This document shows, one piece after another, positions 1,763-56,156 of a stretch of DNA of 64,000 nt; position 1 is the stretch's first letter, and the number at the start of each line of letters is the position of its first letter. The notes under the pieces were generated by a model. That model ran no database searches. It saw only the letters and a list, made by a program, of their open reading frames with translations, and was not told the DNA's origin. A program made the translations under genes and the position numbers. This stretch comes from Nanobdellota archaeon (GTDB lineage: Archaea > Nanobdellota > Nanobdellia > Woesearchaeales > GW2011-AR9), in contig JAUYPX010000026.1 in NCBI GenBank assembly GCA_030697505.1, positions 53,322 through 117,321 of the forward strand, written 5' to 3'.

Positions 1763-1795
1763 ATATTCTCCTCCCAAAAAGACATTCTTAAATGT

Positions 1796-2734: not shown

Positions 2735-2757
2735 TTTTTTATTTCCCCATGCTAAAA

Positions 2758-39461: not shown

Positions 39462-41348
39462 CTATTTAAGTTTATCTGTGGCAAACTTTTCATATTCTCC
39501 ATCTATAAAAATCCTGCACCACAGCTCTATATTTAGAAGAGACCAGATCCGCGCCGCATTGACTAGATCTCTAAGGCCGTCGCTTTTACTATTACAATGA
39601 GTATCCAGCAATTTTCTGACATATTTTTGATTGAATATCCCTCTATTCCCAGTTCTCTCATCTAATAAAACTGAATAAACGTATCGTTTCAAATCCTTGC
39701 GGATCCATAAAGAGAACGGAGTAGGGTACCCTTTCTTAGGTTGGCGGTAATGTATAGAAGGCAGATCTTTTCTCATGCTCTGTTTTATTATGTGTTTAAG
39801 TTCATGATGGTGCAATTTAAATTTCAGAGGGACAGAATTGGCAAAATCCACCATCTCATTGTCGCAGAACGGGACTCTTGCTTCTATCGAATGGGCCATC
39901 CCCATCTTATCCTCACAGACCAGAAGCGAAGGAAGGTACGTTTTGAGATATAAGTATTGGGCCTTATCGGCAGAAGAAGTTATATCCTTGCGTTGAAACT
40001 TTTCAAGTACAACGGTGGTATTTTTATTTTGCAGAGCGCCATAAAAAGATTTAGACAATAATCGTTTACGATGCTTTTTGTTGAACATGATGAATAGGCC
40101 ATGCTTAACTTCTTCATCAAAAAGAGGGAAGAACATAAAATAAAGGCTGCGCGGCAGTTCGCTCCAGGTAAAAAAAGAAAAGAATTTCAGGGCCATAAAG
40201 GGATTTTTCCTGACCAGATCCTTAAAATAAGCGACCTTGTAAACTGGATACCCGGCGAATAGTTCGTCGCCGGCATGGCCGGTGAGCACAACTTTGACGT
40301 GTTGAGATACTAATTTCGAGACTACATCTTGAGAGATGACCGGTATTCCCGTCTTTGGCTCGTCAAGATGATAGAGTATTTTTTCGATGTTTGACAAAAA
40401 ATCTTGAGGGGAGATGGTTGCTTCGTGGACCACGGCGCCGATCTTTTTGGCCACTAACCTTGAACCTTTTGTTTCATCATAAATTCCACCTTCTTTAAAA
40501 GTGCCGGTAAATGTCTCTATTCTCTTCTTACTTTTTCCTGCGGCAAAAGTGGCTACTGAACTTGAATCAAATCCTCCGCTTAGATAACTGCCCAAAGGAA
40601 CATCGCTGACCATGTGCCGAGTTACTGACCTTGATAGTATTGACCTAAATTCGTCATAATAATCTTCCACTCTTTGTTTATCGCTCTTCTTATAAGAAGC
40701 ATCCCAATATTGAGTGATCGATACTGCCCCATTTTGCACCAGAAGATAATGCCCTGGAAGGAGCATCTTTACCCCTTCAAAAAAAGTTTTTTCATCCATG
40801 ATATTCTGAAAGGTGAGATATTCTGCCGCTGCTTGCATATTCAATTTGCGAGGGAACTGTTCATCAGCAAGAAACGCTTTGATCTCAGAAGCAAACATAA
40901 ACCGTTTTGCCTGGTCAAAATAATACAACGGTTTAACTCCTACCCTATCCCGGGCCAGAAAAAGAAGATCTTTTTTTGCATCCCAGATCGCAAAGGCGAA
41001 CATTCCATTGAACTTTTGCACACACTCCGGGCCATGCTCTTCATAAGCCCGTAAGATCACTTCCGTATCGCTTTTTGTTTTGAATCTATACTTATTCTCC
41101 AGTTCTTTTCTGATCTCTTTATAGTTATAGATTTCCCCGTTAAAGACGATAACTGCTGACCGGTCATCATTATAGATGGGTTGCTGCCCGGTTTTGAGGT
41201 CGATGATGCTCAGTCTTTTATGTCCCAAGGAAACATTCTTATCAGCAAAAAAACCTTCTCCATCCGGGCCTCGATGGTCCAAAAAAGAAGTCATCCTTCT
41301 CAAAAGCTTGATATCCTTTGGTCCATACCACCCGGAAATTCCACACAT
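39462..41348 (-). CDS. Asparagine synthase (glutamine-hydrolysing)-family amidotransferase (AsnB/WbpS-like)
   Basis: MCGISGWYG N-terminal Cys nucleophile and PP-loop SGGFDSS. Confidence 0.85.
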   Translation of the reverse strand: MCGISGWYGPKDIKLLRRMTSFLDHRGPDGEGFFADKNVSLGHKRLSIIDLKTGQQPIYNDDRSAVIVFNGEIYNYKEIRKELENKYRFKTKSDTEVILRAYEEHGPECVQKFNGMFAFAIWDAKKDLLFLARDRVGVKPLYYFDQAKRFMFASEIKAFLADEQFPRKLNMQAAAEYLTFQNIMDEKTFFEGVKMLLPGHYLLVQNGAVSITQYWDASYKKSDKQRVEDYYDEFRSILSRSVTRHMVSDVPLGSYLSGGFDSSSVATFAAGKSKKRIETFTGTFKEGGIYDETKGSRLVAKKIGAVVHEATISPQDFLSNIEKILYHLDEPKTGIPVISQDVVSKLVSQHVKVVLTGHAGDELFAGYPVYKVAYFKDLVRKNPFMALKFFSFFTWSELPRSLYFMFFPLFDEEVKHGLFIMFNKKHRKRLLSKSFYGALQNKNTTVVLEKFQRKDITSSADKAQYLYLKTYLPSLLVCEDKMGMAHSIEARVPFCDNEMVDFANSVPLKFKLHHHELKHIIKQSMRKDLPSIHYRQPKKGYPTPFSLWIRKDLKRYVYSVLLDERTGNRGIFNQKYVRKLLDTHCNSKSDGLRDLVNAARIWSLLNIELWCRIFIDGEYEKFATDKLK

Positions 41349-42452: not shown

Positions 42453-43433
42453 TCACCCGTTTTTATTTCGGAGCTGTCCGGCAATCCATTGCTTTGTTCT
42501 TTCCAACCCTTCATCAAAAGTTATTGATTCCTTGAATCCCACATTTTCTATTTTTTTAGTGCTGGGTATGGGCTTAAGATTTTCTCCCAACCGGGGAGCG
42601 ATAAATTCTGGCCTCATCCCGGGAGGACCGTACTTAGATATCACTTGATTGGCTAATTGCAGCACACTGATCCTATTTCTAGATGCCACATTGTAATCCT
42701 GGCCGATCGAGCGGTTATTTTTATATAAAATGAGGTTGGCATCAACTGCATCATCCACAAAAGTGAAACATCTGATCGCTTCACCGGTGCCGCATACTTG
42801 GGGAGGCAGCCCTTTAAGGACCCGCGATAAAAAGATACCGACTACCCCCGCTTCACCAGTATAATCCTGCCGTGGTCCAAAGACATGAAAATAACGCAAG
42901 ACGGTAGCTTTAATGCCGTAAAGCCGATGGTATAATAAGAAATATTTTTCTGCTGCCAATTTGCTTATACCGTACACAGTAGAAGGATTCATAGCGTCAA
43001 CTTCTTCAAAAGGCTTGTCGCTGCTGCCAAAAACTGAACCCGTGGAAGCATGTATTATTCTGGCATCGCTCTCGCTTTTTCTCATGATTTCCGCGATATT
43101 AAAATTTCCGACCACATTTGTTTGAACATCGATAGTCGGGTCTTTTAAACTGACCACCAGTTTGGAAGCGGCTTCATTAAAAATGATATCGCTTTCTTCG
43201 ACCCAGGGCTTTACCTCCTGATAATCCTTAATATCAGCTTTGACGAATGTAAATCGCGGATCGGTTTTCCAATGAGCTATATTATTAAGGCTGCCATTAG
43301 TGCCGGCGAGGTTATCATAACAAATCACTTTTTCAGCACCTAATTCTAACGCTTTATCAACTAAATGACTGCCTATAAATCCGGCTCCGCCGGTTACCAA
43401 GACTACTTTATTTTTAAATAGGTCCTTATTCAT
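42453..43433 (-). CDS. NAD-dependent nucleotide-sugar epimerase/dehydratase (extended SDR)
   Basis: VLVTGGAGFIGSHLVDKALELG and YGISK. Confidence 0.8.
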   Translation of the reverse strand: MNKDLFKNKVVLVTGGAGFIGSHLVDKALELGAEKVICYDNLAGTNGSLNNIAHWKTDPRFTFVKADIKDYQEVKPWVEESDIIFNEAASKLVVSLKDPTIDVQTNVVGNFNIAEIMRKSESDARIIHASTGSVFGSSDKPFEEVDAMNPSTVYGISKLAAEKYFLLYHRLYGIKATVLRYFHVFGPRQDYTGEAGVVGIFLSRVLKGLPPQVCGTGEAIRCFTFVDDAVDANLILYKNNRSIGQDYNVASRNRISVLQLANQVISKYGPPGMRPEFIAPRLGENLKPIPSTKKIENVGFKESITFDEGLERTKQWIAGQLRNKNG

Positions 43434-45058
43434 GGCATTTGCTCATTCTCTTTACTTAAACATTCATTAACCTTCTCCGCTACATACCTAATCTGTTCTT
43501 CAGTCATTTCAGGATACATGGGCAAGGAAACTATTTCCTTTGTAATCTTCTCGACCATGGGAAAATCTCCCTCTTTATATCCCAAAGAAGCATACGCCGG
43601 TTGCAGATGTAAAGGAGTGGGATAATTTATGCCGGAACTGATTCCATTTTCTTTTAAGAAATTAATTAATTTTTCCCTATTTTTAACCCTGATTACATAT
43701 TGGTGATAAACGTGTTTATGATTCTCAGGAACATGCGGTAGAATAATTCCTGAAGAGCTGAGATACCGATGGTATAATCGCGCATTTTCAATCCTTTGCT
43801 GATTCCATCCCTGAAGATGCTTTAATTTCACCGTAAGAACCGCTGCTTGAAGACTATCCAGCCTTTCGTTATATCCCTCCAGTTCATGGATATACTTTTC
43901 ACCCGGCTTTCTGCCATGGTTTCGTAACATCAATATTTTTTCTGCGATGGGATCATGGTTAGTGATGACTGCTCCGGCGTCTCCAAAAGCGCCGAGATTT
44001 TTTCCTGGAAAAAAACTAAAGGTTGCGGCATCGCTGTAAAATCCTGGAGGATTGTTGTTGTACAGGGCACCATGCGCTTGCGCAGCATCTTCTATGACCT
44101 TAAGATGGTGCTTATCGGCAATTTTTCGTATGCTTTCCATATCGCACATCAAACCATTCAAATGAACCGCGAGGATAGCTTTCGTATTTTCAGTGATTGC
44201 TGAGTCTATTTTTGTGACATCCAGCAGCTGGGTCTTTTCTTCGATATCGACAAATTTTATTTTCGCGCCAACTTTTGAGATCGCTTCTGTCGTCGCTATA
44301 AAGGTATGGGGGGCAGTTATTACCTCATCGCCGCCCTTGACTCCGCAAGCTTCCAGTGCCAATGAAATCGCGCTGGTGCCGTTGCTGACGCCAATGGCAT
44401 GTTTAACCTGGCAATAAGCCGCGAAATCTTTTTCAAAATGGCCGATCTGCTCCGACATGATGAAGGAACAATCATCTACTGTCTTTTTAATAGCTAGATC
44501 CAGTTCATCCCGTATTTTTGAATGCTGTAATCTTAAATCTGCTAAAGGAATTTTCATTGCACCAGCTTCTTTTTGAGCTTTAGGCAGATGCCGTATAATT
44601 TTTGCGGGATTTCCTGCAACCACACAATCATCTGGAACATCTTTAGTAACCACCGCTCCTGCACCGACTATTGAATTTTCCCCAATCGTTACCGGCATAA
44701 GGGTGGCATTGCTGCCTATTACTGCATTTCTTTTAATTACGGTAGATTTCCATTCTTTATCCGAACCGGTCCTTCTTTTAGAAGGAGGATGCAGATCATT
44801 TATAGTCATGACTCCATGACCGATAAAAACATTATCCTCAATGGTAACTAAGGAACAGATAAATGAATGAGAAGAGATAATGACATTATCTCCTATTTTA
44901 GTGTTGTTTTGCACTTCCACGTAAGAGCCTATTTTAGTATTTTTTCCGATCTTTGTCCCATATACATTTGCAAATTCCCACACCTGTGACCCTTCCCCGA
45001 TTACTGAATCTTTAACTATTGAGGTACCCGAAATTTTCACTCCGCTGGTCTTTTCCAT
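43430..45058 (-). CDS. Bifunctional fusion. N-terminal hexapeptide-repeat (LbH) N-acetyltransferase plus C-terminal DegT-family aminotransferase (WbpD-WbpE-like).
   Basis: Residues 1-170 carry repeated [LIV]G..x..[LIV] hexapeptides (VIGEGSQVWEFANVYGTKIGKNTKIGSYVEV...). Residues about 180-542 have GVSNGTSAISLALEA, FSFFPGKNLGAFGDAGAV and LRNHGRK. Confidence 0.8.
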   Translation of the reverse strand: MEKTSGVKISGTSIVKDSVIGEGSQVWEFANVYGTKIGKNTKIGSYVEVQNNTKIGDNVIISSHSFICSLVTIEDNVFIGHGVMTINDLHPPSKRRTGSDKEWKSTVIKRNAVIGSNATLMPVTIGENSIVGAGAVVTKDVPDDCVVAGNPAKIIRHLPKAQKEAGAMKIPLADLRLQHSKIRDELDLAIKKTVDDCSFIMSEQIGHFEKDFAAYCQVKHAIGVSNGTSAISLALEACGVKGGDEVITAPHTFIATTEAISKVGAKIKFVDIEEKTQLLDVTKIDSAITENTKAILAVHLNGLMCDMESIRKIADKHHLKVIEDAAQAHGALYNNNPPGFYSDAATFSFFPGKNLGAFGDAGAVITNHDPIAEKILMLRNHGRKPGEKYIHELEGYNERLDSLQAAVLTVKLKHLQGWNQQRIENARLYHRYLSSSGIILPHVPENHKHVYHQYVIRVKNREKLINFLKENGISSGINYPTPLHLQPAYASLGYKEGDFPMVEKITKEIVSLPMYPEMTEEQIRYVAEKVNECLSKENEQMP

Positions 45059-45098
45059 GTCTCTTTTTCTAACTGTTATCTATTTTTCTTATTCTATC

Positions 45099-46076
45099 TT
45101 ATTCTATTTTGCAGATCTCATGATTTTGCGCCGACTTTATGGCCAGCAAACACATCTTTGTGGTAAGGATATTCTCAGCAGAAAGATTGGAATGCACTTC
45201 TTCGCCCATATTTTTTTTATTGCAAAGATGGACAAAATATTTTAATTCTTCAAGCAAAGGCTGGTTTTTTCCGACCTGCGGATCACGAAAGGTTTCCTTC
45301 TTTTCTGTTTTATCTTCTTGGACCACCAGAGGGTGTCTTTCAATGACTTGATCTAAGAAATCAAGATAGAGTTTTTCTTTAGAGCCGATTATCCACATAT
45401 CTCTTTTCTTCAAGGGATGGCAGCAGCTAACCTCAAGATGGGCGCTAAATTTCCCATAGTCAATGGTTATGACGGAAGAATCTTCATTCTGTTTAGAGAT
45501 CAAATGCGAATTTCGAGCATAGATATTTTGCGGGCTAGGCTCTAGCAGGGTATTCAAAAAATCAATAAGATGCACGCCTAGATTAAAAATAACGCCTGAA
45601 TCCTTACGCGGCGGGACCGTAGAATGGATGTACCTGCCGGAGATGTAATGTATTTCACCGATCTCTGATAACAGCTCTTTCATCCTGTTGATGAGGGGAT
45701 TAAAGCGAAGAACGTACCCTACAGAAAGGATAGCTTTCTTTTCCTGGGCCAGCTCCATCAATTCCTGCACCTCCCGGTATTCAAAACAGAGCGGCTTTTC
45801 TACAAAAATATGTTTTCCCTGCAGAAGACATTCTTTAGCCACTTGGTGATGAAGGGTGGTGGGCACCACTATGGTTACTGCATCGACGAAAGGAAGCATC
45901 TCTTTATAATTTTGAAAAAATCGGATATTGTGCTTGGAGGCCAGCTCTCTCTTGCTTTCATCGATATCTGCAAGAGCGACCAGATGACAAGAGGAGATTT
46001 TAGATAAGTCTCGGAGATGGTTTTCGCCCCATTTTCCCGATCCTATTATTCCTATCTTAACCACTCTTAACCACAA
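45099..46076 (-). CDS. Gfo/Idh/MocA-family NAD-dependent oxidoreductase (WbpB-like nucleotide-sugar 3-dehydrogenase candidate)
   Basis: KIGIIGSGKWGENHLRD Rossmann N-terminus and EKPL motif (FVEKPLCF). Confidence 0.75.
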   Translation of the reverse strand: MWLRVVKIGIIGSGKWGENHLRDLSKISSCHLVALADIDESKRELASKHNIRFFQNYKEMLPFVDAVTIVVPTTLHHQVAKECLLQGKHIFVEKPLCFEYREVQELMELAQEKKAILSVGYVLRFNPLINRMKELLSEIGEIHYISGRYIHSTVPPRKDSGVIFNLGVHLIDFLNTLLEPSPQNIYARNSHLISKQNEDSSVITIDYGKFSAHLEVSCCHPLKKRDMWIIGSKEKLYLDFLDQVIERHPLVVQEDKTEKKETFRDPQVGKNQPLLEELKYFVHLCNKKNMGEEVHSNLSAENILTTKMCLLAIKSAQNHEICKIE

Positions 46077-46105
46077 CTAACCTCAAAACCCTTAATTTAA
46101 ATAGA

Positions 46106-47623
46106 TTATGATTCTAAGACCTCATATTTATAGATGGTCACACCTATGAATTTCCTTTCCTCTTTCAATTCGTATAACGAATCCAATCGCAGTTTAAAAT
46201 AATCTTTGGTGTGAAAATTATGGCTTAAAATTAAGTAAGCATCCCTTTTTTCTGAAGCTCTTTCTATCAGCAAGTAATCATCCTCACCTGGTGTTATCAA
46301 CCGCACTTCTTCAACATTGCCGGAATAGTAGTAATCAAAACATAACTTAGCTATAGTGGCGCGATGAAGAAAGAGCACGTCTGCCGAAGTAGCATGACTT
46401 TCTATGTACTCAGCAGCTTCATGAAATTGTTCCTTGGAATCGATATCATAATAAGTGTATAACTCCGCTGAGGCGCTTATCACTATAAGGATGAAAAACC
46501 CAGTTGCCAGGCTATTTTGTTTTATTCGCAATAAGATTCTAGAAAGTAGGATGTAACCTAAAGGAAGCAGAAAGAAGCCGAACCTGATGATATGGACAGA
46601 TGAAAAAAAATACCTGCTCCAGATAAGATCCATCATGATAAAAGAAAGCAGCAGCAAAGAGATTATTTTTTGGTTTGAAAAATAAGTGAAGATGCGTTTA
46701 AGATGGCCAATCAATATGTTCAAATTAATTTTATCGGCCATGACCAGATATAAAGTTATGAAATAGAATAAACCGAGAAAAGCTGCGACAACTACCGCCA
46801 GGGGAAGTAAATCAAAGCCTAATTTTTCAATCAATTTTCCCCCAAGGGATTTATACAGGAGAGGAAGCTGATAAAAGGCCAAGATGTTGAGCCAGGGTAA
46901 AAAGAGCAGAAAGACCATCAAAAGAGCTAAGAAGAACTTTGGAGAAAAAATCTGCCTCTGGAAGAAAGGAGAAACAGTATCTTTTTTCTTCTGCTTAAAA
47001 AAATAACCGGTAGAATAAAATACGATATAACCTGCCAGAATCGCCAGGCTTATAATGTGCGTATAGAGCAACAAAGCTACAGAAACCGAAAAGAACAAGG
47101 TGTTTAGAACAGACGGTTTTTTCATGAATGCAATAAAAGATAGGAGAGACAGCAGGAAAAATGCTGCGAACATACTGTACATCTTCGCTTCCTGAGAATA
47201 AAGTACAGAAGTATACGAAATACTGACCAAAAAGGCAGCCAACAACCCTTCCTTCCAGGAGAAGATTTTTCGTGCCAAAAGAAAGGTAAGAAAAACGGTA
47301 AGAACCCCAAAAAAAACAGAAAGGATACGTAAACTGATCTCTGAATATCCAAAATACTCCATCAACAGATGCTGAGGAAGGTAATACCCGATAGGATGGA
47401 CATCTTTCTTGAGAGTTTCAATTAGAAGATTAACAGGTTTTGAAGCATAATCAAGCGTAAAACATTCATCCAGCCATAAACTCTCTTCACCTAAATCGTA
47501 CAGCCTGAGGATGCCTGCTCCTAAAAGTATTATTGCTAATACCCAAGCTATAATGACTTTATCTCTCAAATCCTTCCTCATGACACCTTTTTTAGAAGAT
47601 GGTTTAAAAGATTTCTGAAGCAA
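46106..47623 (-). CDS. PMT_2/ArnT-like GT-C glycosyltransferase (GT39/GT83 family)
   Basis: LRLYDLGEESLWLDECFT first-loop DE motif and HPIGYYLPQHLL (hPPLyyWl-like). Confidence 0.6.
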   Translation of the reverse strand: MLQKSFKPSSKKGVMRKDLRDKVIIAWVLAIILLGAGILRLYDLGEESLWLDECFTLDYASKPVNLLIETLKKDVHPIGYYLPQHLLMEYFGYSEISLRILSVFFGVLTVFLTFLLARKIFSWKEGLLAAFLVSISYTSVLYSQEAKMYSMFAAFFLLSLLSFIAFMKKPSVLNTLFFSVSVALLLYTHIISLAILAGYIVFYSTGYFFKQKKKDTVSPFFQRQIFSPKFFLALLMVFLLFLPWLNILAFYQLPLLYKSLGGKLIEKLGFDLLPLAVVVAAFLGLFYFITLYLVMADKINLNILIGHLKRIFTYFSNQKIISLLLLSFIMMDLIWSRYFFSSVHIIRFGFFLLPLGYILLSRILLRIKQNSLATGFFILIVISASAELYTYYDIDSKEQFHEAAEYIESHATSADVLFLHRATIAKLCFDYYYSGNVEEVRLITPGEDDYLLIERASEKRDAYLILSHNFHTKDYFKLRLDSLYELKEERKFIGVTIYKYEVLES

Positions 47624-47681
47624 AGACCACTAAACCTACTGATTCACAAAATATTTAAGCTGAACTTCAGCCGATAAAGAG

Positions 47682-48614
47682 ATGGAATCTATCCCCGCAT
47701 CATCAAAAGTTAAACCTTCAAAAAAGCCGAAGGTCATCATTTCTATCCCGGCTTATAACGAAGAAAGAGACCTAGGAAGAACTATCGGCGAAATAAAAGA
47801 AACATTGAGAGAGACTTCTTACCATTATAAAATTTTAGTATTAAATGACGGAAGCAGGGATAACACCGCCAAGATCGCTGAAGAGCAAGGGGCGATGGTT
47901 GTCTCCCATCGGCGCAACAAGGGATTGGCAGAGACCTTCCGTACGGAGATGAAGGAATGTCTGGAACGCCAGGCAGATATCATCGTCCATACCGATGCCG
48001 ATGGCCAATATGATCCGCGGCATATTCCCCAGCTTATAGCGAAAGTGCAGCAAGGATATGATCTCGTCCTGGGCAGCCGCTTCCGTGGGAAGATCCAATA
48101 CATGCCTTTCACCAAACGCGTGGGAAACATTCTTTTTTCCAAAGTGTTAAGCTCTCTGGCCAAAGTGAGAATTACCGACTCGACCACGGGATTCCGGGCC
48201 TTCACTTCCGAGCTGGCCAGAGAGATAGATTTCATCAACACCTTTACCTACACTCAGGAACAGATCATCAAGGCAGCCAAGCAGGGCTTTAGGATCGCTG
48301 AGATTCCCATCGACTCAAGAAGAACCAGAAAAAGCAGGCTTTTCAAGAATCCGCTCCAGTATGCAGTCAAGGCTTGGATAAATATTTTTAGGATCTACCG
48401 AAACTACGAGCCGCTGCAATTCTTCGGAAAAATTGGATTGACTTTCTTCGGCATTGGCATCCTCTTGGGAGTTTGGCTCGTATACCGTTTTATCACTTTA
48501 GGTAATGTAGGAAGACTCCCTACGACCGTCTTAAGCGCTTTGTTTATGCTGGTGGGAATCCAGATTGTTCTGTTTGGTTTTTTAGCGGATATGATCAATA
48601 ATAGAAAGATCTAA
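47682..48614 (+). CDS. GT2 polyprenyl-phosphate sugar synthase (GtrB/ArnC-like) with C-terminal TM helices
   Basis: ISIPAYNEERDL, VLNDGSRDNT and C-terminal hydrophobic pair (GLTFFGIGILLGVWLVY...LFMLVGIQIVLFGFL). Confidence 0.8.
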   Translation: MESIPASSKVKPSKKPKVIISIPAYNEERDLGRTIGEIKETLRETSYHYKILVLNDGSRDNTAKIAEEQGAMVVSHRRNKGLAETFRTEMKECLERQADIIVHTDADGQYDPRHIPQLIAKVQQGYDLVLGSRFRGKIQYMPFTKRVGNILFSKVLSSLAKVRITDSTTGFRAFTSELAREIDFINTFTYTQEQIIKAAKQGFRIAEIPIDSRRTRKSRLFKNPLQYAVKAWINIFRIYRNYEPLQFFGKIGLTFFGIGILLGVWLVYRFITLGNVGRLPTTVLSALFMLVGIQIVLFGFLADMINNRKI

Positions 48615-48665: not shown

Positions 48666-49394
48666 TCATTTATTCTGTGCAGAAAAAAAATCATCATCAG
48701 CTTTCTGCAGTTTGATGAGCGTCGTAGCTAACTTCTTCACCATCTCTATCGTATGCATCGCCGCATAACATGCCAGACCAACAAATGGTTGATTAAGCAG
48801 AATGCAGAAAAACATGAGATTAAGAGGATGTTCTATGCGCACGAATCCAAATATGAAAACAGTTAATTTACTTCTTTTCCGGGGATTCAGCTGAGTCATG
48901 ATTTCTGCTACCCGTTCCCGCTGCTCTCCTTTGTAGGAGATCAAATTTAAGTTGAAAAGCTTGGCAAATACAAATGCGCCGACAGCTATTCCGCCTAAAT
49001 ACAATGAACGTAGGTCATTAGTCATCTTATATGTGCCAAGAGTCAAGCCGCATAGTACTGCGATTATAGTTATATGATGCGCGATCTGCTCAAGATACTG
49101 GCCTTTCAAGGTGGATTTATTGCGGTATCTAGCCAAATTGCCGTCGACACAATCAAAGAAATGTCCAAGATGGTAAATGACTATTCCTAAAAGCATCCAC
49201 TTATACAAACCGGTCGACAACAAAACTGCACCGGCCAAACCCAAAAATAACCAGAACAAGGTAACCTGATTGGAAGTGATGGGAGTATTGATGAACGGTT
49301 TGGTAAAATAAAATCCGATTTCATGAACTAATTTGTTTGAAAAACCCCAATATTCCTTTTTGCATTTTTCCCTGAGTTCGTTTATAGTGACCAT
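48666..49394 (-). CDS. CDP-alcohol phosphotransferase-superfamily membrane protein with a divergent signature
   Basis: DCVDGNLARYRNKSTLKGQYLEQIAH resembles D-G-x2-A-R-x8-G-x3-D-x3-D, but the last two Asp are E and H. It has multiple TM helices. Confidence 0.5.
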   Translation of the reverse strand: MVTINELREKCKKEYWGFSNKLVHEIGFYFTKPFINTPITSNQVTLFWLFLGLAGAVLLSTGLYKWMLLGIVIYHLGHFFDCVDGNLARYRNKSTLKGQYLEQIAHHITIIAVLCGLTLGTYKMTNDLRSLYLGGIAVGAFVFAKLFNLNLISYKGEQRERVAEIMTQLNPRKRSKLTVFIFGFVRIEHPLNLMFFCILLNQPFVGLACYAAMHTIEMVKKLATTLIKLQKADDDFFSAQNK

Positions 49395-49404
49395 GATTCT
49401 TTCT

Positions 49405-50142
49405 TTATTTTTTGTTTAAGTTATTAATATTACTAATGTTACTGATCATCTCGTGTTTTTTAGTAATATAATACCACATTACGATAGCATCCTGTTCTGC
49501 AGTTGGACTCTCAGAATTATCGTAGGGAATGGCATCCTTCGCTCTAGTCAAAGGGCTTATTATCCTGGTACGGTCACGTTCATCGATATCCTCGATTATC
49601 TTGCGAACCTCTTCCGGAGTATGTTTTGTTTTCTCCCCGGGAGGCAGCATTTTGAAGAACCTCTTTACTTTCACGTCCATGGAAGCATCCAAAAAGAATT
49701 TCCAATCGGCATTAGGAAATACCGTTGTTCCAGTATCACGCCCTTCGACAACAAAACCGCCTTGGCTGGCAATACTGCGTTGAAGCTCCAGAAGCTTTTC
49801 TCTGACCGCAGGAATGCTTGCGACTTTTGAAGCTAAAGAAACAACTTCATTTGAAGTTATGCTCGCAGCCACGTCCTCGCCGTTCAAAAATAAATGACTC
49901 TCGCCTTGGACTGATCTAAATTCCATAGTCACCGCTTTCATGGCCTTGATGATATCCTTCTCCTCTGCCAAACCTTTTTTTTTGACGAAGTATCCGATAG
50001 CGCGGAACATCGCTCCCGTATTCAGATACTGGTATCCCATCAGCTTAGCCAGCGCTTTTGCAGAAGTTGATTTTCCGGTCCATGAAGAGCCATCGATGGT
50101 AATGATCATCTTTTCTCTTTTCTTTCCGCCTTCCATGACCAA
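49405..50142 (-). CDS. cmk: Cytidylate kinase, bacterial type
   Basis: ITIDGSSWTGKSTSAKALAKLMGYQYLNTGAMFRAIGY aligns closely to E. coli Cmk (ITIDGPSGAGKGT...DSGAIYR). DERDRTRIISPL ~ ERDDRDRNRAVAPL. The ORF track uses a TTG start; the true start is probably an internal ATG near 50115. Confidence 0.8.
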   Translation of the reverse strand: MVMEGGKKREKMIITIDGSSWTGKSTSAKALAKLMGYQYLNTGAMFRAIGYFVKKKGLAEEKDIIKAMKAVTMEFRSVQGESHLFLNGEDVAASITSNEVVSLASKVASIPAVREKLLELQRSIASQGGFVVEGRDTGTTVFPNADWKFFLDASMDVKVKRFFKMLPPGEKTKHTPEEVRKIIEDIDERDRTRIISPLTRAKDAIPYDNSESPTAEQDAIVMWYYITKKHEMISNISNINNLNKK

Positions 50143-50199: not shown

Positions 50200-51351
50200 T
50201 CAACTGATTCTCTTTAATATATCTCGTAAAGCTCCTTCCGTAAGCTCCCGCGGATTGTTATTCACCCTCTCCGGATTAAATCCATGAGCAACAATGATAT
50301 CATGATGTTCTGGAGAGTTTATCTTGAGATCAACCAATCTTCTGGTAAGCCCGATCTGATCCATGAGATTATTTATCTTCTCTTGCAGCTGTTTAGAGGC
50401 CTGCACCTGAAAGAGCGAACATAATTCAGAAAGAGTTTTCTTGACAGATTCGGCGCCTCTTCCGTCAAGACAATCGTCATCGGTCACTGCACTATTGTAC
50501 AAACACATCTCTCCTAAAGTCAACGCGCAGGCATGGCCATGGGAAACTCCAAAATAAGAGGTCATCGGATATGAGACAGCATGGCAGGCAGTAGTCTTAG
50601 ACACATTTATCGCTTTTCCAGCCAGATTGGCTCCCAGCAGCATCGCTTCACGATTCGGTGCGGAAGGATTGTTCACCGCCGAGGCCAAATTATCCAGAAT
50701 TATCTTTATTGCTTTCCGGGCATATTCTTTAGATTCCTCTGTTGACTGGGTAGACCAATATGATTCCACGGCCTGGCATAATGCATCTATCCCTGTAGAA
50801 GCCGTGATATACTTGGGCAGATTGAAAGAAAGGTTTGGATCTAGAAAAACATATTTTGGCAGCATCCATCCCTGATGACCGAGAGAATATTTTGTTTTCC
50901 CGATGTATACGACGGCAAAATGTGTGGCTTCCGATCCCGTACCGGCGGTAGTGGGAATGGCCACAAAAGATTTCGGCTTATGAGCTGCAATCAATTTCTT
51001 AGTGATATAATCTTCCGGTACTTCATATTGAGCTGCAAGAAAATTAATCGATTTTGCTATATCAATGACGCTTCCTCCCCCGATAGCAATTACCAAGTCA
51101 CAGCCTGATCGTCTGAATAAAGCGATCCCTTTTTTAACATCTTCAAGCTGGGGATTGACTGAAAAATCAGAGAAAAAAATAACCTTGTAATCTGAAAGCA
51201 GGGATTCAAACATTTTTTGCGCTCCAGAACGTTGGTAAGAATTTTTCCCCGTCACTACAAAAACAGATGATGGTTTCTCCTTTTCTAAAACCTCACTGAG
51301 TCGAGCAAGACTTCCTGGACCGATATATTCATATTGCATCTTTATCTTCAA
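50200..51351 (-). CDS. Iron-containing alcohol dehydrogenase family (phosphonoacetaldehyde reductase candidate)
   Basis: GGGSVIDIAKSINFLAA Fe-ADH signature. 4-bp overlap with upstream ppd. Confidence 0.75.
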   Translation of the reverse strand: MKIKMQYEYIGPGSLARLSEVLEKEKPSSVFVVTGKNSYQRSGAQKMFESLLSDYKVIFFSDFSVNPQLEDVKKGIALFRRSGCDLVIAIGGGSVIDIAKSINFLAAQYEVPEDYITKKLIAAHKPKSFVAIPTTAGTGSEATHFAVVYIGKTKYSLGHQGWMLPKYVFLDPNLSFNLPKYITASTGIDALCQAVESYWSTQSTEESKEYARKAIKIILDNLASAVNNPSAPNREAMLLGANLAGKAINVSKTTACHAVSYPMTSYFGVSHGHACALTLGEMCLYNSAVTDDDCLDGRGAESVKKTLSELCSLFQVQASKQLQEKINNLMDQIGLTRRLVDLKINSPEHHDIIVAHGFNPERVNNNPRELTEGALRDILKRIS

Positions 51352-52484
51352 CTGCTTTCTTTTTGCAGAAATTCCATGAATTGTTTCTTATTTTCAAGAG
51401 GCGATTGAGTCGGCCTTCCAAGATTTTTACGCGCTCCTTTATTGCAGCGTATTTCCAATAACATAGGGCCGGTCTCCTGTTTCATTTTTAACAAGACTCC
51501 TTTGATCTCTTCAGCCGTTTCCGCTCTGAAAACAGCCTTATACCCATTTCCTTTTGCTATCTCTAAGATATCGATGGCATCAGCGGCAGTGGGTTGTCCG
51601 CCGACTGAATCGTGAGCAAAATTATTGAAGACGATATGATTAAAATTAACTGGCTGCAGTTTGCCGACCGTGGAAAGGATGCCCATGTGCATGATCAAGG
51701 CACCATCGCCATCAAAACAATACACCTTTCTATTCTGCTTCTGGAGAGCAATGCCTACCGCGATGGCAGAAGAATGTCCCATCGAGCCAACCGTCAAGAA
51801 ATCTTGGTGATGCCCTTTCCCGGTTGCTTTACGGAATTCAAACAACTCCCGCGAGGTTTTTCCTGTGGTAGAAACAATGATATCATCTTTATCAAGAAGT
51901 GATGCTACTAATTTAATCGCCTCTTCTCTAACCAACGGAAAATGAGTCTCTTGTTTAGTTTTTAAGGAGTAGGAATCAAAAGTCCCTTCCCTAACTACAA
52001 GAGCATAAGGTGTTTTGTGGTTATTCAGATGTTCTGCTGCTTTTTGCACCGCTGCCTTTGCTTCTTCTTCATTTTCAGGAAGAACAGCATAAGGAATCTC
52101 TAACACTTCCAGCAATGACAAAGTTATTCTTCCCATCTTGCGATGCTGAGGCTCATCTTTTCTGCCTGGTTCTGCTCTCCATCCGATCAGCAGCAGTAAC
52201 GGCAGAGAATAAATCTCTTTATCTGTAAGGGAAGTCAAAGGATTGACACAGTTGCCTAATCCTGAATTCTGCAGATAGACTACCCCTGCTTTTCCTGTCG
52301 CCAAATGATAGCCAGCAGCTAAGGCGATAGCATTTCCTTCATTTGCAGCAATAATGTGATCCTTAGCCGAAGTATTATCCGTGACATAGGCGCAGAAATC
52401 TTTTAGCAATGAATCTGGAACTCCGGCATAGAAAGTTAGGTCGTGTCCCTTCAACTGATCAAAAAAATATCGTGGTGAGATCAT
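51348..52484 (-). CDS. ppd: Phosphonopyruvate decarboxylase (ThDP-dependent)
   Basis: ThDP-binding GDG-X24-N motif (FDGDGALIMHMGIL...NNFAHDS) and N-terminal pyrimidine-binding domain. Operon context with PEP mutase. Confidence 0.75.
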   Translation of the reverse strand: MISPRYFFDQLKGHDLTFYAGVPDSLLKDFCAYVTDNTSAKDHIIAANEGNAIALAAGYHLATGKAGVVYLQNSGLGNCVNPLTSLTDKEIYSLPLLLLIGWRAEPGRKDEPQHRKMGRITLSLLEVLEIPYAVLPENEEEAKAAVQKAAEHLNNHKTPYALVVREGTFDSYSLKTKQETHFPLVREEAIKLVASLLDKDDIIVSTTGKTSRELFEFRKATGKGHHQDFLTVGSMGHSSAIAVGIALQKQNRKVYCFDGDGALIMHMGILSTVGKLQPVNFNHIVFNNFAHDSVGGQPTAADAIDILEIAKGNGYKAVFRAETAEEIKGVLLKMKQETGPMLLEIRCNKGARKNLGRPTQSPLENKKQFMEFLQKESS

Positions 52485-52507: not shown

Positions 52508-53404
52508 TTATAAAGATGATGAAAGAAGGTTATTGACTATATTAAGATAAGATTCCATCCTCTGCAAGCCGCTCTTCTCAACTAAAGCTACTCCGAAAGC
52601 AGTAGGCGCTTTGCCGGCTTTAATTTTGTTGCCATAACTCCTGGCCACCACATCGGACATGCGCAGATCAAAATTTGCTTTAAGCTTCTCTCGGTCATCT
52701 AATTCAAGCAGATAAGACTTGCCATCATCAATACAATCGGCGACAGTTAATGCCATTAAAGCAAGCTTATCTTTTCCATGAGCAAAATCGTTTCCGCTCG
52801 CTGCACAAGGATTTCCATACTCTTCAAACATAGCTAAAATACTGTGAGGATTGTTCGGATAGTTATATGCTTCAGACCAGGCTGAATAATGTCCCACATT
52901 ATTGAAGCCAGTTCTTTTAGCGATCATGTTCGCAATTTCCAGATAGGCATTATGCTGAGCCGCATCGGCAAGAATTTGAGCATCTAATTCTATAGCCAAA
53001 TGATAAAATGACAATTCTTTTTCTTCTTGATCAAATTCAACACCATATTTCGCAAAAGCATTGGAAAGATCGTGAACTAATCCCATCGCGTACCCCACTT
53101 TAGGAGAAGGCAGTTCCAAATCAGGATTTCTTTCAGAGATGGCTGCGACCAATTGTGAAGTAAGATTGCCGACGCGTAGAAAATGGGCCATCCTTTCATC
53201 TTTTTTAGCAAGCTGTGAATTTGCATCATACACGACCGCGCTAACATCTCTTGCCCTTAACTGCGTAGGATCTTCACGCATGATCTCAAAAACATGGTGA
53301 ACTTTTCTGGTCAGATCAGAAACGCCACTGCCCGGAGAGCGCTGCACCATATTTTCTCCGTCGTAGAGAAAAGGCACTAGAAATTGGATATCTGTCGAAA
53401 CCAT
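52508..53404 (-). CDS. Hypothetical protein, possible HD-domain metal-dependent phosphohydrolase
   Basis: Spaced H...HD...H...D residues (MAHFL...GLVHDLSNAF...FYHLAIELD). Weak. Confidence 0.3.
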   Translation of the reverse strand: MVSTDIQFLVPFLYDGENMVQRSPGSGVSDLTRKVHHVFEIMREDPTQLRARDVSAVVYDANSQLAKKDERMAHFLRVGNLTSQLVAAISERNPDLELPSPKVGYAMGLVHDLSNAFAKYGVEFDQEEKELSFYHLAIELDAQILADAAQHNAYLEIANMIAKRTGFNNVGHYSAWSEAYNYPNNPHSILAMFEEYGNPCAASGNDFAHGKDKLALMALTVADCIDDGKSYLLELDDREKLKANFDLRMSDVVARSYGNKIKAGKAPTAFGVALVEKSGLQRMESYLNIVNNLLSSSL

Positions 53405-53463: not shown

Positions 53464-54834
53464 CTAAATTTTATTTTTTCCTTCCTTGTTAAACCAAGGC
53501 ATTAGTTCGCTCACCGCGCGATCAGCATTTTCCTTTCCAATCAAAGAAAGCTCACGCTGCGGTTCGCCGGCAGCCCTTCCGCCTATCCTTAAGACTAGCA
53601 GCTTCCCATCTTTTCCACGGAAATTATGATGAACAAACGGTTTTAGGTACAGAGAATCGTCCGGATGAATAAAATCGTGATGCGTTTGTCCAGCAGAATA
53701 CCAATTGACATTTACTGGTGTTTTCCCAACATTATACACATATTGATGCAGGCCAACTTTTAGATCTAAACTGCCTACATCACTGCCTGCATCTTTCAGC
53801 ACCTCCATTTCCAAGGCTTTAGAATGAGGAAGATGACGTGTACCTGCTAATTCGACTAATTTGTATGCCGGATGAGTACTTGGACAATTCCATCTAAAAG
53901 TATCTTGATAATTCTTTACTATCACTTTTTCTCCTACCTTATTTGGCGGCAATAATTCCCTCGCATCAATATTCAAAGCTTCAGCTATAGATTCTAAGTC
54001 AACTCTATTTGGCAAAATATTTCCAGATTCATACCTTACTAAAAGAGCAACAGGAAGCGTAGTTCTCCATTCCAATTCCTCATAATCCATACTCGCTGCT
54101 TCCCTATGAAAGCGCAATAAAGAACCGAACGCTTTCATGGGAGTGGAAAAATCCATAGCATACTGCGAAGCTAACTCTGTTCCCAGCGCCGACAATTCTT
54201 GCTGAGTTTCCCCCGCTAATTTGTTGCCATAGGTCAAGGCGAGGATTAATCCGCTTTCTCCCGCATCGTTTTTGCGGGTAGCGAACGTGTGAGGCACAAA
54301 TGGAGTGATGTACATGGAATCACCGGTATTCATCACCGCTATTTTTTTCTTTCCATCTTCACCTTGGTAATAAAAATTAACAGGTCCCACGAAGTAGGTA
54401 AACTGATGCATGAAGTGGCCGTTGTTCCATTGCACTTCTGGATTGTCAGCCTCATCGTTATTGACAACACAAAGTTCTTTGATCCATTCCGGACGGAATT
54501 GGCTGACGCTGCTGGCGGCAGTATCGCGATATTCGTAATATGGTTTCCCGGCCCGTTCCATGACTCTGCTGCTCTGCGCTGATTCAGTTGCCCGCATGAT
54601 TTTAATGCCATTTGGAGCATCATCGCGCAGACAATAGAAATCACGTTCATTTACCGGCCAGATCTCTGTCGCGCGCTTGGCCACCTTCGCAGGAATTTCC
54701 CGTTCACCGCGCAAATAAGAATTAAATTTTTCGAGAGGAACATTAAGCTCGCGTGCCGCATCTTCTGGACGGCGTTTAAGATCGTTGATGATCCCTTGAA
54801 GATTCTGTCCGCTTCTTTTTTGATAATTGCCCAT
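53464..54834 (-). CDS. mpnS: Methylphosphonate synthase-like bicupin of the HEPD/MPnS family
   Basis: NNGHFMHQFTYF...TGDSMYITPFVPHTF parallels the HEPD NNGH...TGDSYVEPSYCPHTY block. Relative to the first His there is Gln at +4, Phe at +14, Ile at +36 and His at +42. No Glu ligand is present. Start is placed at the ATG preceded by a GGGAGG SD (Met7 of the ORF-track GTG-start ORF at 54852). Confidence 0.7.
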   Translation of the reverse strand: MGNYQKRSGQNLQGIINDLKRRPEDAARELNVPLEKFNSYLRGEREIPAKVAKRATEIWPVNERDFYCLRDDAPNGIKIMRATESAQSSRVMERAGKPYYEYRDTAASSVSQFRPEWIKELCVVNNDEADNPEVQWNNGHFMHQFTYFVGPVNFYYQGEDGKKKIAVMNTGDSMYITPFVPHTFATRKNDAGESGLILALTYGNKLAGETQQELSALGTELASQYAMDFSTPMKAFGSLLRFHREAASMDYEELEWRTTLPVALLVRYESGNILPNRVDLESIAEALNIDARELLPPNKVGEKVIVKNYQDTFRWNCPSTHPAYKLVELAGTRHLPHSKALEMEVLKDAGSDVGSLDLKVGLHQYVYNVGKTPVNVNWYSAGQTHHDFIHPDDSLYLKPFVHHNFRGKDGKLLVLRIGGRAAGEPQRELSLIGKENADRAVSELMPWFNKEGKNKI

Positions 54835-54848
54835 ATAGATTGCCTCCC

Positions 54849-56156
54849 TCACTCATCTCCATTAGGTATGAGCGTGATGATTTCCTTTATGGGCATGCAG
54901 AGTTCCTTGCTTGCCTCGTGACATCGCTTATGCTTTAAAATTGATTCTGCCGCCTTCACCATCGAAGGATAGGCGCTGCGCAATAGATGATTGGCATAAA
55001 TAACGATATTAACTCCGGCTTTCATGAGTTCCTCTTCAGTTACAGTAGCATAGGTGCTGGGTACAGCGATCAAAGGCACCCTATTTTCAAACTTCCGGTA
55101 TTCTTCGCAAAACTGCAGCACTTCATCAGGAGATTTCTCTTTGCTATGGATCATAATGCCGTCGGCTCCGGCTGCGATATACGCTTTCGCCCTAGCCAGA
55201 GCATCATCTATGCCTTTCTCCAAAATCAGACTTTCGATCCTAGCGATGATCATAAAGTCGTCAGACGCTTGAGCCTTCTTGCCTTCAGAGATTTTATGGC
55301 AGAAATTATCTATAGTGTCCTGGATTTGTTCTACTTCCGTCCCAAACAAGGAATTTCTTTTCGATCCGACCTTATCTTCGATTACTACCGCAGAAACGCC
55401 TAACCTTTCCAGCGTTTTCACCGTAAAACGGAAATGCTCGATCAGGCCTCCGCTGTCCGCATCTACGACCATGGGCTTGGAAGTCACTTCAAAAATTTCA
55501 CTGACCGTGTTGCTGATGGAAGTGATATCTACATATTCAATATCTGGCTTTCCTTTAGAGGTAGCATGGGTCAGACTGCTCAGCCAGGTCGCATCAAAAG
55601 TTTGCGGTACCTGGTTCTCATCTTTCACCATCGCTTTTTCGACAATAAGTCCGGTCAGGCCGTTATGAGCTTCCATCACCCGCACCATCGACTTGGCATT
55701 GAGCAGACGACGCAGCATATATCTGCGAACATCGGGAGTGACGCCTCGCTGCTTTACCTTAGTGATCATTTGAGTTGAAGAAATTCCCTGCGTATAAGCT
55801 GGTTCAATTACCTGGCCGCCCCATTCTTTCATCACCTCAATCACTCGTTCCCTTTTTTTGGCTTGTACGCCTGTTTTCCAGTCATCGCCATGGACAAAAT
55901 AATCTGGTTTCAATTCTTGCAGCGCCGGAATGTAATCATCATCTTCCTGCACGTAGACCCTGTTGACCATACGTATATTTTCAATAACTTTTTTACGCTG
56001 CTCAAAAGTCAATAATGGAAGCCGTTTGTAATTGGCGATAGCCCGATCAGTCAGAAGACCGACAATTACTTCGCCTAACTTACTCGCTTCATGAAGGATA
56101 TTCATATGGCCGTCATGCAATAAGTCAGCGGCCATGGGAACGTATACTGTTTTCAT
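54849..56156 (-). CDS. ppm: Fusion of an N-terminal cytidylyltransferase (HxGH nucleotidyltransferase, TagD/PntC-like) and a C-terminal phosphoenolpyruvate phosphomutase
   Basis: N-terminus AADLLHDGHMNIL (HxGH). C-terminal domain has IEDKVGSKRNSLFG (PEP mutase EDKxxxKxNSL) and IIARIES. A strong AGGAGG SD lies 7 nt upstream. Confidence 0.8.
   Translation of the reverse strand: MKTVYVPMAADLLHDGHMNILHEASKLGEVIVGLLTDRAIANYKRLPLLTFEQRKKVIENIRMVNRVYVQEDDDYIPALQELKPDYFVHGDDWKTGVQAKKRERVIEVMKEWGGQVIEPAYTQGISSTQMITKVKQRGVTPDVRRYMLRRLLNAKSMVRVMEAHNGLTGLIVEKAMVKDENQVPQTFDATWLSSLTHATSKGKPDIEYVDITSISNTVSEIFEVTSKPMVVDADSGGLIEHFRFTVKTLERLGVSAVVIEDKVGSKRNSLFGTEVEQIQDTIDNFCHKISEGKKAQASDDFMIIARIESLILEKGIDDALARAKAYIAAGADGIMIHSKEKSPDEVLQFCEEYRKFENRVPLIAVPSTYATVTEEELMKAGVNIVIYANHLLRSAYPSMVKAAESILKHKRCHEASKELCMPIKEIITLIPNGDE

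Follow-up and report, generated by a model that had tools for sequence, protein, structure and literature searches.

The stretch of DNA analyzed here (the window: 64,000 nucleotides of a Nanobdellota archaeon, assembly GCA_030697505.1, contig JAUYPX010000026.1, positions 53,322 to 117,321) encodes, at 48666..49394 on the minus strand, a membrane protein of the cytidine diphosphate (CDP)-alcohol phosphotransferase family (CDP-APs) that has glutamate and histidine at the last two "invariant" aspartates of the family signature. The change marks a large subfamily, here called His-type, and not one gene; histidine at the fourth aspartate position is the majority state among the sequences tabulated. 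The gene closes an array of methylphosphonate (MPn) genes and probably handles a phosphonate activated by cytidine monophosphate (CMP), but that substrate is not what the motif change signals. We regard the transferase as a good candidate for attaching phosphonate to surface glycan.

A membrane transferase with Glu and His in the signature motif

The product of the gene is 242 amino acids long, starts with ATG, has an intact open reading frame (ORF), and matches PF01066 (CDP-OH_P_transf) at 45.4 bits (gathering cut-off 22; E 1.4e-11), in agreement with its preliminary description as a CDP-alcohol phosphotransferase homolog. Eight signature residues of the family, D1xxD2G1xxAR...G2xxxD3xxxD4, have been called absolutely conserved (PMC4634129). 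The transferase keeps six of the eight (D81, D84, G85, A88, R89, and G98) and lacks the full signature: its motif, D81xxD84GxxAR-x8-G98xxxE102xxxH106 (49077..49154, minus strand), reads in full D81-C-V-D84-G85-N-L-A88-R89-YRNKSTLK-G98-QYL-E102-QIA-H106. D3 has changed conservatively to E102 (codon GAG at 49089-49091) and D4 to H106 (CAT at 49077-49079), both codons having been read by hand. The same two substitutions were reported in the preliminary description, with the reservation that the motif might have been mis-registered and canonical aspartates might lie elsewhere. In a phmmer search against PDB sequences, the alignment to AF2299 (4o6m) 'DGCDGEIARLKFMESKYGAWLDGVLDR' puts E102 under D3 and H106 under D4, an independent alignment to M. 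tuberculosis PgsA1 (6h53) 'DMLDGAMARERGGGTRFGAVLDATCDR' has the same register, and no aspartate was found in residues 98-125, the third transmembrane (TM3) helix. These two agreeing structure-anchored alignments and the Asp-free helix rule out a mis-registered motif.

An AlphaFold2 (AF2) model made with 16 homologs (pLDDT 86.9, pTM 0.81) has an N-terminal helix and about six long ones, a six-TM fold in which the signature runs from the end of TM2 into the start of TM3: helix 64-90 ends with D81-R89, and helix 96-125 starts with G98, E102, and H106. AF2299 is both the best sequence match among PDB sequences (phmmer, E 2.6e-7, identity ~20%) and the best Foldseek match of the model (4q7c/4o6n, E 1.6e-6, TMq 0.68). 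The best Foldseek matches are all CDP-APs, namely AF2299, IPCT-DIPPS, and phosphatidylinositol phosphate (PIP) synthases, and CHPT1 is a poor match (8ero, E 0.31). The P(D/N)xx(T/S) motif of TM1, through which the family touches the amine of cytosine, is present as S41-N42-Q43-V44-T45, aligned with P-N-Q-I-T of AF2299, with serine in place of proline. By NCBIfam cut-offs the transferase belongs to none of the named equivalogs (archaetidylinositol phosphate, PIP, phosphatidylglycerol phosphate [PGP], phosphatidylserine [PS], and cardiolipin synthases, and IPCT-DIPPS): its best match, NF040950, reaches 46.4 bits against a cut-off of 180, every other falls far under its cut-off, and PIP, PGP, and PS synthases are weak matches. 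In canonical CDP-APs, D4 is the presumed catalytic base and an Mg-2 ligand (PMC4634129, PMC6506517), and the D93N (D4N) substitution in a canonical enzyme nearly abolishes activity (PMC4634129).

The substitutions are conserved and define a subfamily

Glutamate and histidine are kept together in 25 of 25 homologs at 48-100% identity found by a word-indexed search, and over this range the six retained signature residues are invariant with them. The NCBI entry that is 100% identical to the transferase comes from a 'Nanoarchaeota archaeon' metagenome-assembled genome (MAG). Across 15 loci for which DNA was compared, synonymous codons turn over at both positions (Glu: GAA in 10, GAG in 5; His: CAT in 8, CAC in 7). 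Because the amino acids are fixed while their codons vary, E102 and H106 are under selection and not errors; this pattern, together with the intact ORF, rules out a sequencing error or a pseudogene. In a more diverse alignment of 34 His-type sequences (23-74% identity), D81, D84, G85, A88, R89, G98, and H106 are invariant, and N42 and T45 nearly so.

A profile search over 1.84 billion cluster representatives returned 16,359 matches at E <=1e-3, and motif states were tabulated for the best 150 of them together with close homologs (n=177 sequences). The states at D1-D2-D3-D4 were DDDH in 69, DDEH in 36, and DDDD in 28, with scattered DDE[MLIV] and DDD[YTGNQK]; a second search, with a D..H member as seed, gave 103 sequences, among which the D3-D4 states included DH (46), EH (24), ED (9), and DD (2). 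In a rough neighbor-joining (NJ) tree the canonical D..D sequences fall together in a clade of 32, apart from a His-type group of 111 leaves in which D3 has changed to Glu many times. The window's transferase falls inside this group, apart from the canonical phosphonate-linked sequence of a verrucomicrobial locus (L030). The motif counts, the tree, and the conserved columns of the His-type alignment together make the deviation a trait of the whole subfamily, not just of the transferase gene.

The clade of the window's transferase in this tree holds 8 E..H and 4 D..H leaves. In its sister clade of 10 leaves D3 is Glu and D4 is Leu, Ile, Met, or Val, within the motif DHxDGNLARMKEKFSxLGPYLEQLxxFF (genes at L018 26+, L019 477-, L020 10238+, L021 11239-, and L022 10241+); a hydrophobic residue at D4 can be neither base nor metal ligand. 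The sister-clade gene adjoins a (d)CMP kinase gene (Cmk) in L020 and L021.

The Glu/His change does not track phosphonate genes

The substitutions had been suggested to reflect a switch from phosphodiester to phosphonate-ester chemistry. One half of this idea holds, in that the gene does lie in a methylphosphonate operon; the other half, that the Glu/His change is the cause or the mark of such a switch, is not supported. If the change were such a mark, His-type genes should track phosphoenolpyruvate (PEP) mutase and canonical genes should not, and the opposite is seen. Scanning up to 10 kb of flank for the EDKxxxxxNS motif, we found no PEP mutase near the His-type genes of nine loci (L007/8, L009, L018, L019, L021, L093, L094, L095, and the Streptomyces locus L050). 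Conversely, ten bacterial loci, mostly of Verrucomicrobiota, have a true PEP mutase (EDKxxxxxNS) and phosphonopyruvate decarboxylase (Ppd) 2-4 kb from a canonical D..D transferase. Histidine at D4 is moreover too common, with 69 DDDH and 36 DDEH among the 177 tabulated sequences and 46 DH and 24 EH among the 103 of the second search, and a D..H member, with Asp at D3, stands in a cluster with methylphosphonate synthase (MPnS), L092. This distribution of motif states against PEP mutase rules out the pair as a phosphonate-specific adaptation. Glu at D3 was likewise rejected as a marker of phosphonate clusters. In the local clade only, the E..H genes are phosphonate-linked and their D..H sisters (L018, L019, and L021) are not, but this makes no general rule because E..H also occurs in L095 and L050, which lack PEP mutase, and D..H in the MPnS cluster L092.

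All five annotated His-type loci without PEP mutase (L007/8, L009, L093, L094, and L095) are glycan or polysaccharide clusters, whose genes encode Wzx-type flippases, GT2 and GT4 glycosyltransferases, STT3, PMT_2, and nucleotidyltransferases. L050 is a natural-product cluster, and L018, L019, and L021 were scanned only for the window's phosphonate genes. In L050 (9782-11713) and L043, both from Streptomyces spp., an E..H PF01066 domain (DCVDGDLARSRNRPSVSGTLLEQLAHW) and an Aminotran_5 region share one long ORF, surrounded by genes for a Lys/Orn N-monooxygenase, an ATP-grasp ligase, an APH-type kinase, an AMP-binding enzyme, and a polyketide synthase, with no PEP mutase. The glycan cluster of L095 (2544-8118 and 11317-13272) has two PF01066 genes, one of them E..H, along with CTP_transf_3, NTP_transferase, and B12 radical-SAM genes; a PhnD-family (Phosphonate-bd) ABC transporter is encoded nearby, again with no PEP mutase. 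That L095 decorates glycans with imported phosphonate is pure speculation.

The other proposal, a different nucleotide donor, is not supported either. Because the cytosine-contacting N42 and T45 and the pocket formed by G85, A88, R89, and G98 are kept, the operon encodes a Fom1-like, CTP-dependent cytidylyltransferase as its activating enzyme, and a CMP kinase gene adjoins the transferase gene, the nucleotide is very likely still cytidine.

A seven-gene methylphosphonate array in a surface-glycan island

Seven minus-strand genes, spaced by gaps of -4 to 59 bp, occupy 56156 to 48666, the transferase gene being the last. The first (54849..56156) encodes a fusion of a Fom1-like cytidylyltransferase (residues 1-136) with a PEP mutase (residues 146-432), hereafter CyTase-PepM. 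Its N-terminal domain matches 5x3d, the Fom1 cytidylyltransferase domain, at E 2.8e-46 over residues 3-136, and its PEP mutase scores 389 bits against TIGR02320 (cut-off 319.55) and carries the motif EDKVGSKRNS at 55379. MPnS follows (53464..54852), with E 4.6e-159 to N. maritimus MPnS (6b9s) and a weaker 3.1e-86 to HepD (6b9r). The residues aligned with MPnS H148, Q152, F162, I184, and H190 are all identical; these residues, which include the 2-His-1-Gln site, are reportedly diagnostic for MPnS according to its 2017 structure paper. At NCBI the protein is labeled only 'helix-turn-helix domain-containing protein'. Beyond a conserved protein of unassigned function (52508..53404) come Ppd (51348..52484; TIGR03297, 499.6 bits, cut-off 312.5) and an Fe-dependent alcohol dehydrogenase (Fe-ADH, 50200..51351; PF00465/PF25137), to which we assign the reduction of phosphonoacetaldehyde to 2-hydroxyethylphosphonate (2-HEP); its best NCBIfam match is the phosphonate-cluster Fe-ADH TIGR03405, under its cut-off. 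The bacterial-type Cmk gene (49405..50142; TIGR00017, 181.3 bits, cut-off 135.55) lies 10 bp upstream of the transferase gene on the same strand. The array thus holds every component of a methylphosphonate gene cluster: a PEP mutase with the EDKxxxxxNS motif, Ppd, a reductase (Fe-ADH), and MPnS. It does not hold the core of the Burkholderiales_CDP-OH clusters (Ppm, Ppd, AEPT, and PntC), as it has no 2-aminoethylphosphonate (AEP) transaminase and has MPnS instead.

The 298-amino acid protein of unassigned function matched nothing in Pfam (including a lenient scan), NCBIfam, or PDB sequences, and a single-sequence AF2 model was unusable (pLDDT 38.9). It is conserved within MPn operons (L010 5974-6867, L013 5189-6046, and L022 12221-13087) with an invariant H...HD...H...H...D pattern (H74, H111-D112, H135, H151, D206, and D223) that resembles the ligand pattern of HD-domain enzymes.

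Facing the 3' end of the transferase gene is the convergent plus-strand gene of a polyprenyl-phosphate glycosyltransferase-like GT2 (47682..48614; PF00535) of the Dol-P-sugar synthase type, whose best PDB sequence matches are P. furiosus Dol-P-Man synthase (5mlz, 9.7e-18) and then GtrB and ArnC. Next to it, on the minus strand, is a GT-C (PMT_2) membrane glycosyltransferase gene (46106..47623; PF13231, 30.1 bits, cut-off 26.1), a possible outer-face transferase for a modified sugar. The whole 30-64 kb part of the window is a surface-glycan island. By their Pfam domains, genes at 43430-48614 and 59645-60952 include a GFO_IDH_MocA oxidoreductase, a fusion of hexapeptide acetyltransferase and DegT aminotransferase, and a UDP-sugar 6-dehydrogenase. 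The oxidoreductase and the acetyltransferase-DegT fusion are presumably WbpB/WbpE/WbpD-like, and with the dehydrogenase they suggest a 2,3-diacetamido-uronic-acid sugar, which an Asn-synthase-like amidotransferase (39462-41348) could amidate.

Recurrence of the array in DPANN genomes

The layout of the array is repeated in homologous loci of DPANN MAGs, in a genome sample that our locus search patterns bias toward 'DCVDG[ND]LA' sequences. The full set of transferase, Cmk, and phosphonate genes is present in L002, L010, L011, and L013, and synteny is partial in L012 (cut by the contig end), L015, L016, and L001/L017 with L022. On the 780-kb contig shared by L001/L017 and L022, MPnS, ADH, Cmk, and GT2 genes stand beside the E..H gene at L001/L017, and a second paralog, of the E..I type, adjoins the gene of the 298-amino acid protein, a CyTase-PepM fusion, and MPnS at L022. 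Wherever the flank is present among loci of at least 48% identity, nine distinct places in all (L001/L017, L002, and L010-L016), Cmk adjoins the transferase gene. In L002 the order is rearranged: the transferase gene comes first in the array, directly ahead of the CyTase-PepM fusion, and the GT2 gene is at the far end of the phosphonate array, whereas GT2 is directly beside the transferase in L001/L017, L012, L013, L015, and L016. The GT-C gene is syntenic in L012, L013, L015, and L016 at 61-67% identity, a PMT_2 gene lies near the transferase in L092 and L093, and Fe-ADH is syntenic in L002, L010-L013, and L092. The D..H protein of L092, another Woesearchaeota MPnS cluster, is a 209-amino acid PF01066 member 28% identical to the window's.

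L015 and L016 keep CyTase-PepM, Cmk, transferase, GT2, and PMT_2, with B12 radical-SAM and HIT-like genes in place of Ppd, ADH, and MPnS, none of which is on the contig. In L015 the B12-binding radical-SAM and HIT-like genes (1018-4662) are beside CyTase-PepM, and L016 probably has the same arrangement; further radical-SAM genes are found at L092 11562-13100 and L001 811-2367. These genes recall Fom3, which acts on CMP-HEP, an analogy that hints at further modification of CMP-bound phosphonates in some DPANN clusters. A complete pathway (CyTase-PepM, MPnS, Ppd, and Fe-ADH) is present in DPANN (Nanoarchaeota/Woesearchaeota) MAGs at the window, L002, L010, L011, L013, and L092. Several loci (L010, L011, L013, L015-L018, and L022) are labeled 'uncultured Methanosarcinales archaeon'; near-identical loci are labeled Nanoarchaeota, and the former label is probably a taxonomic mistake.

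Proposed function and alternative explanations

We put at about even odds a model in which a CMP-phosphonate, through the His-type transferase, gives up its methylphosphonyl group (or 2-HEP) to a lipid-linked sugar. The data establish family, fold, motif state, conservation, operon content, and synteny; the activity, donor, acceptor, and roles of E102 and H106 that we infer would fit together as follows. PEP would be converted by PEP mutase to phosphonopyruvate, by Ppd to phosphonoacetaldehyde, by Fe-ADH to 2-HEP, and by MPnS to MPn, and the Fom1-like domain of the fusion would join the phosphonate (MPn, possibly 2-HEP) and CTP into a CMP-phosphonate anhydride. In the transferase, the CMP moiety would be held by N42/T45, G85, A88, R89, and G98 and a metal bound through D81, D84, and E102, and H106 would serve as the general base, deprotonating an acceptor hydroxyl for attack on the phosphonyl phosphorus with expulsion of CMP, which the adjacent CMP kinase would recycle to the CTP pool. 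As the likeliest acceptor we see a sugar of the polyprenyl-phosphate-linked glycan that the neighboring Dol-P-sugar-synthase-like GT2 would make, and the modified sugar could later be brought outside by the GT-C (PMT_2) protein to leave methylphosphonate esters on surface glycans. Transfer to an acceptor is implied because a membrane transferase and a CMP kinase follow the cytidylyltransferase in the array; a glycan is proposed as that acceptor because of the 30-64 kb glycan island, the five His-type glycan loci, and the polyprenyl-phosphate type of the GT2. The Fom1 cytidylyltransferase domain makes CMP-HEP, and nucleotidyl activation is the general route to surface phosphonates (PMC6697681).

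Several points weigh against this model. Histidine is chemically able to act as a base in place of D4, but activity with it there is an assumption, as a canonical D4N enzyme is nearly inactive (PMC4634129), and the activity of the His-type proteins is predicted throughout; for a metal-dependent transfer that releases CMP, the adjacent CMP kinase and the cytidylyltransferase give indirect support. The main weakness is the sister clade, whose D4 is hydrophobic (Leu, Ile, Met, or Val) although Cmk or MPn-cluster genes still stand beside it (L020, L021, and L022): its proteins may be non-catalytic or have another function, or D4 may matter less in this lineage than it does in PIP synthases. The cytidylyltransferase domain may act on either MPn or 2-HEP, and the acceptor is predicted from gene neighborhood. 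More tentatively still, the His-type proteins as a whole could be a mechanistically distinct class, with His for the Asp base and altered ligation of the second metal, that adds phospho- or phosphono-groups to lipid-linked glycans and does not make lipid head groups; its E..H clade would esterify MPn (or 2-HEP) onto surface glycans, and DPANN would be an unrecognized source of glycan-bound MPn.

We hold two alternatives to be unlikely. The transferase could be a phosphonolipid synthase that passes the phosphonyl group from CMP-phosphonate to a membrane lipid alcohol of the archaeol or diacylglycerol (DAG) type. The best-known family members make lipid head groups, as do the weakly matching PIP, PGP, and PS synthases, canonical CDP-OH genes adjoin PEP mutase in the ten bacterial loci, and the activity has a precedent in eukaryotic ethanolamine phosphotransferases with CMP-AEP and is predicted for the Burkholderiales_CDP-OH clusters. 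CDP-OH transferases beside Ppm and PntC have indeed been read as phosphonolipid genes (PMC8942020), but the nearest relative in structure and sequence, AF2299, is of the soluble-donor type (PMC4634129), and the lipid-acceptor enzyme CHPT1 matches the model poorly. Moreover, the five annotated non-phosphonate His-type neighborhoods contain glycan and not lipid genes, and MPn has been reported on polysaccharide and glycoprotein fractions, not on lipids (PMC8931226, PMC9381506). The tight linkage of the transferase to the MPn genes bears on the other possibility, an ordinary glycan-decorating CDP-alcohol transferase (with a CDP-glycerol or CDP-ethanolamine donor, for example) that is merely co-located with phosphonate genes. 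Half or more of the examined His-type loci lack PEP mutase, and in the sister clade (L020 and L021) the Cmk-transferase pair has no phosphonate genes with it, as such an enzyme would lead one to expect. In the window, however, the gene is on the same strand as Cmk, 10 bp away, at the end of the MPn array; this linkage persists between 90% and 48% identity and survives the rearrangement of gene order in L002, and the sole cytidylyltransferase of the operon is of the Fom1-like phosphonate type, with none for a CDP-alcohol seen there.

We consider two further readings very improbable. The reaction could run in the canonical direction, with CDP-archaeol (or CDP-DAG) as donor and the hydroxyl of 2-HEP as acceptor, yielding an archaetidyl-hydroxyethylphosphonate lipid much as PGP and PIP synthases work. 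The operon does make 2-HEP, a small anionic alcohol resembling glycerol-3-phosphate, and an invariant R186, in the loop ahead of the last helix, might hold an anionic group much as the acceptor-site arginines do in PIP synthases (PMC4634129). Against this, 2-HEP is consumed by MPnS, whose product has no hydroxyl, and the operon's cytidylyltransferase would be left without a role. CDP-archaeol synthesis is also not generally known from DPANN archaea. AF2299-like proteins, finally, have no lipid-donor groove (PMC4634129). The last reading is a dead pseudoenzyme, a scaffold or a CMP/CDP-binding regulator that has lost its catalytic base, as the near-dead D93N enzyme (PMC4634129), the hydrophobic D4 of the sister clade, and the sporadic T, Y, G, N, Q, and K at D4 might suggest. 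It is hard to reconcile with D1, D2, G, A, R, G, and His being invariant in the 34 diverse sequences, and the histidine, retained through synonymous codon turnover, is far too conserved for a relaxed site.

Significance

Both the presence of CDP-OH transferases in phosphonate clusters and the cytidylyl activation of phosphonates are already known. As carriers, the published MPnS surveys considered here name Thaumarchaeota, a 'Crenarchaeota archaeon', and several bacterial orders, with DPANN not among them, and they give LicD, sulfatase, and nucleotidyltransferase genes as MPnS neighbors. In the open-access literature, which is weak evidence on this point, we found no description of the His-type signature, of its link to glycan clusters, or of DPANN MPnS operons with such an attachment module. 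The rule of "eight absolutely conserved residues" would need qualifying for the His subfamily and for the sister clade with hydrophobic D4, and the His-type subfamily is a natural experiment on the proposed base and two-metal mechanism. Aerobic methane formation uses MPn as a substrate. For the esterification of MPn onto surface or dissolved polysaccharide, the operon supplies a concrete candidate attachment module in which a Fom1-like cytidylyltransferase is combined with a His-type transferase and a CMP kinase. The MPnS pathways of DPANN archaea are complete and come with a module unlike the thaumarchaeal one, and if the proposed function is true, glycan-bound MPn from DPANN would feed aerobic methane production.

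Comparison with known systems

The closest known proteins in sequence and structure are AF2299 (4o6m/4o6n/4q7c) and IPCT-DIPPS (4mnd) of Archaeoglobus fulgidus, which use soluble CDP-alcohol donors. The window's transferase shares with them the six-TM core, D1, D2, G, A, R, and G, and the NxxT cytosine contact of TM1; it differs in having Glu at D3 and His at D4, in lacking an N-terminal cytosolic domain, and in its low identity of ~20%. The contexts differ as well, an osmolyte pathway for the Archaeoglobus proteins and a phosphonate and glycan cluster for the window. A similar context is found in bacteria: in the Burkholderiales_CDP-OH or Group 1 phosphonolipid clusters (PMC8942020) and in verrucomicrobial loci (L030 and others), a PF01066 gene stands beside PEP mutase, Ppd, and cytidylyltransferase genes as it does in the window, with the same logic of a CMP-activated phosphonate passed to a membrane transferase. 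Unlike the window's, the transferases of the sampled bacterial loci (L025, L030, and others) have canonical D..D and belong to a separate clade. The Burkholderiales clusters are moreover AEP pathways with AEPT, for which lipids are predicted (PMC8942020), whereas the window has MPnS and no AEPT.

The thaumarchaeal MPn clusters of the Nitrosopumilus and Nitrosotenuis type have the four core enzymes too: PEP mutase, Ppd, Fe-ADH, and MPnS at 56-58% identity. In L090 (Nitrosotenuis sp. DW1, CP030846) and L091 the PEP mutase is unfused and Ppd is split, unlike the fusion gene of the window, and the genes flanking MPnS comprise two of the sulfatase family and one for an IspD/NTP_transf_3 nucleotidyltransferase. 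Because these two clusters have sulfatase-family genes and no PF01066 gene or Cmk was found in them, the attachment modules of DPANN and Thaumarchaeota differ. Fosfomycin biosynthesis offers parallels at two steps: the domain fused to the window's PEP mutase is closely homologous to the 5x3d domain of Fom1, which forms CMP-HEP, and the B12 radical-SAM genes of related clusters (L015, L092, and L001) recall Fom3. In the fosfomycin pathway, however, CMP is transient and removed by hydrolysis, while in the window a membrane transferase and a CMP kinase follow. The eukaryotic CEPT/EPT enzymes belong to the same family and differ from the window's six-helix E..H protein in having ten TM helices, canonical D..D, and a DAG acceptor. 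They accept CMP-AEP to form phosphonolipids, and so provide a precedent for a CMP-phosphonate donor in this family.

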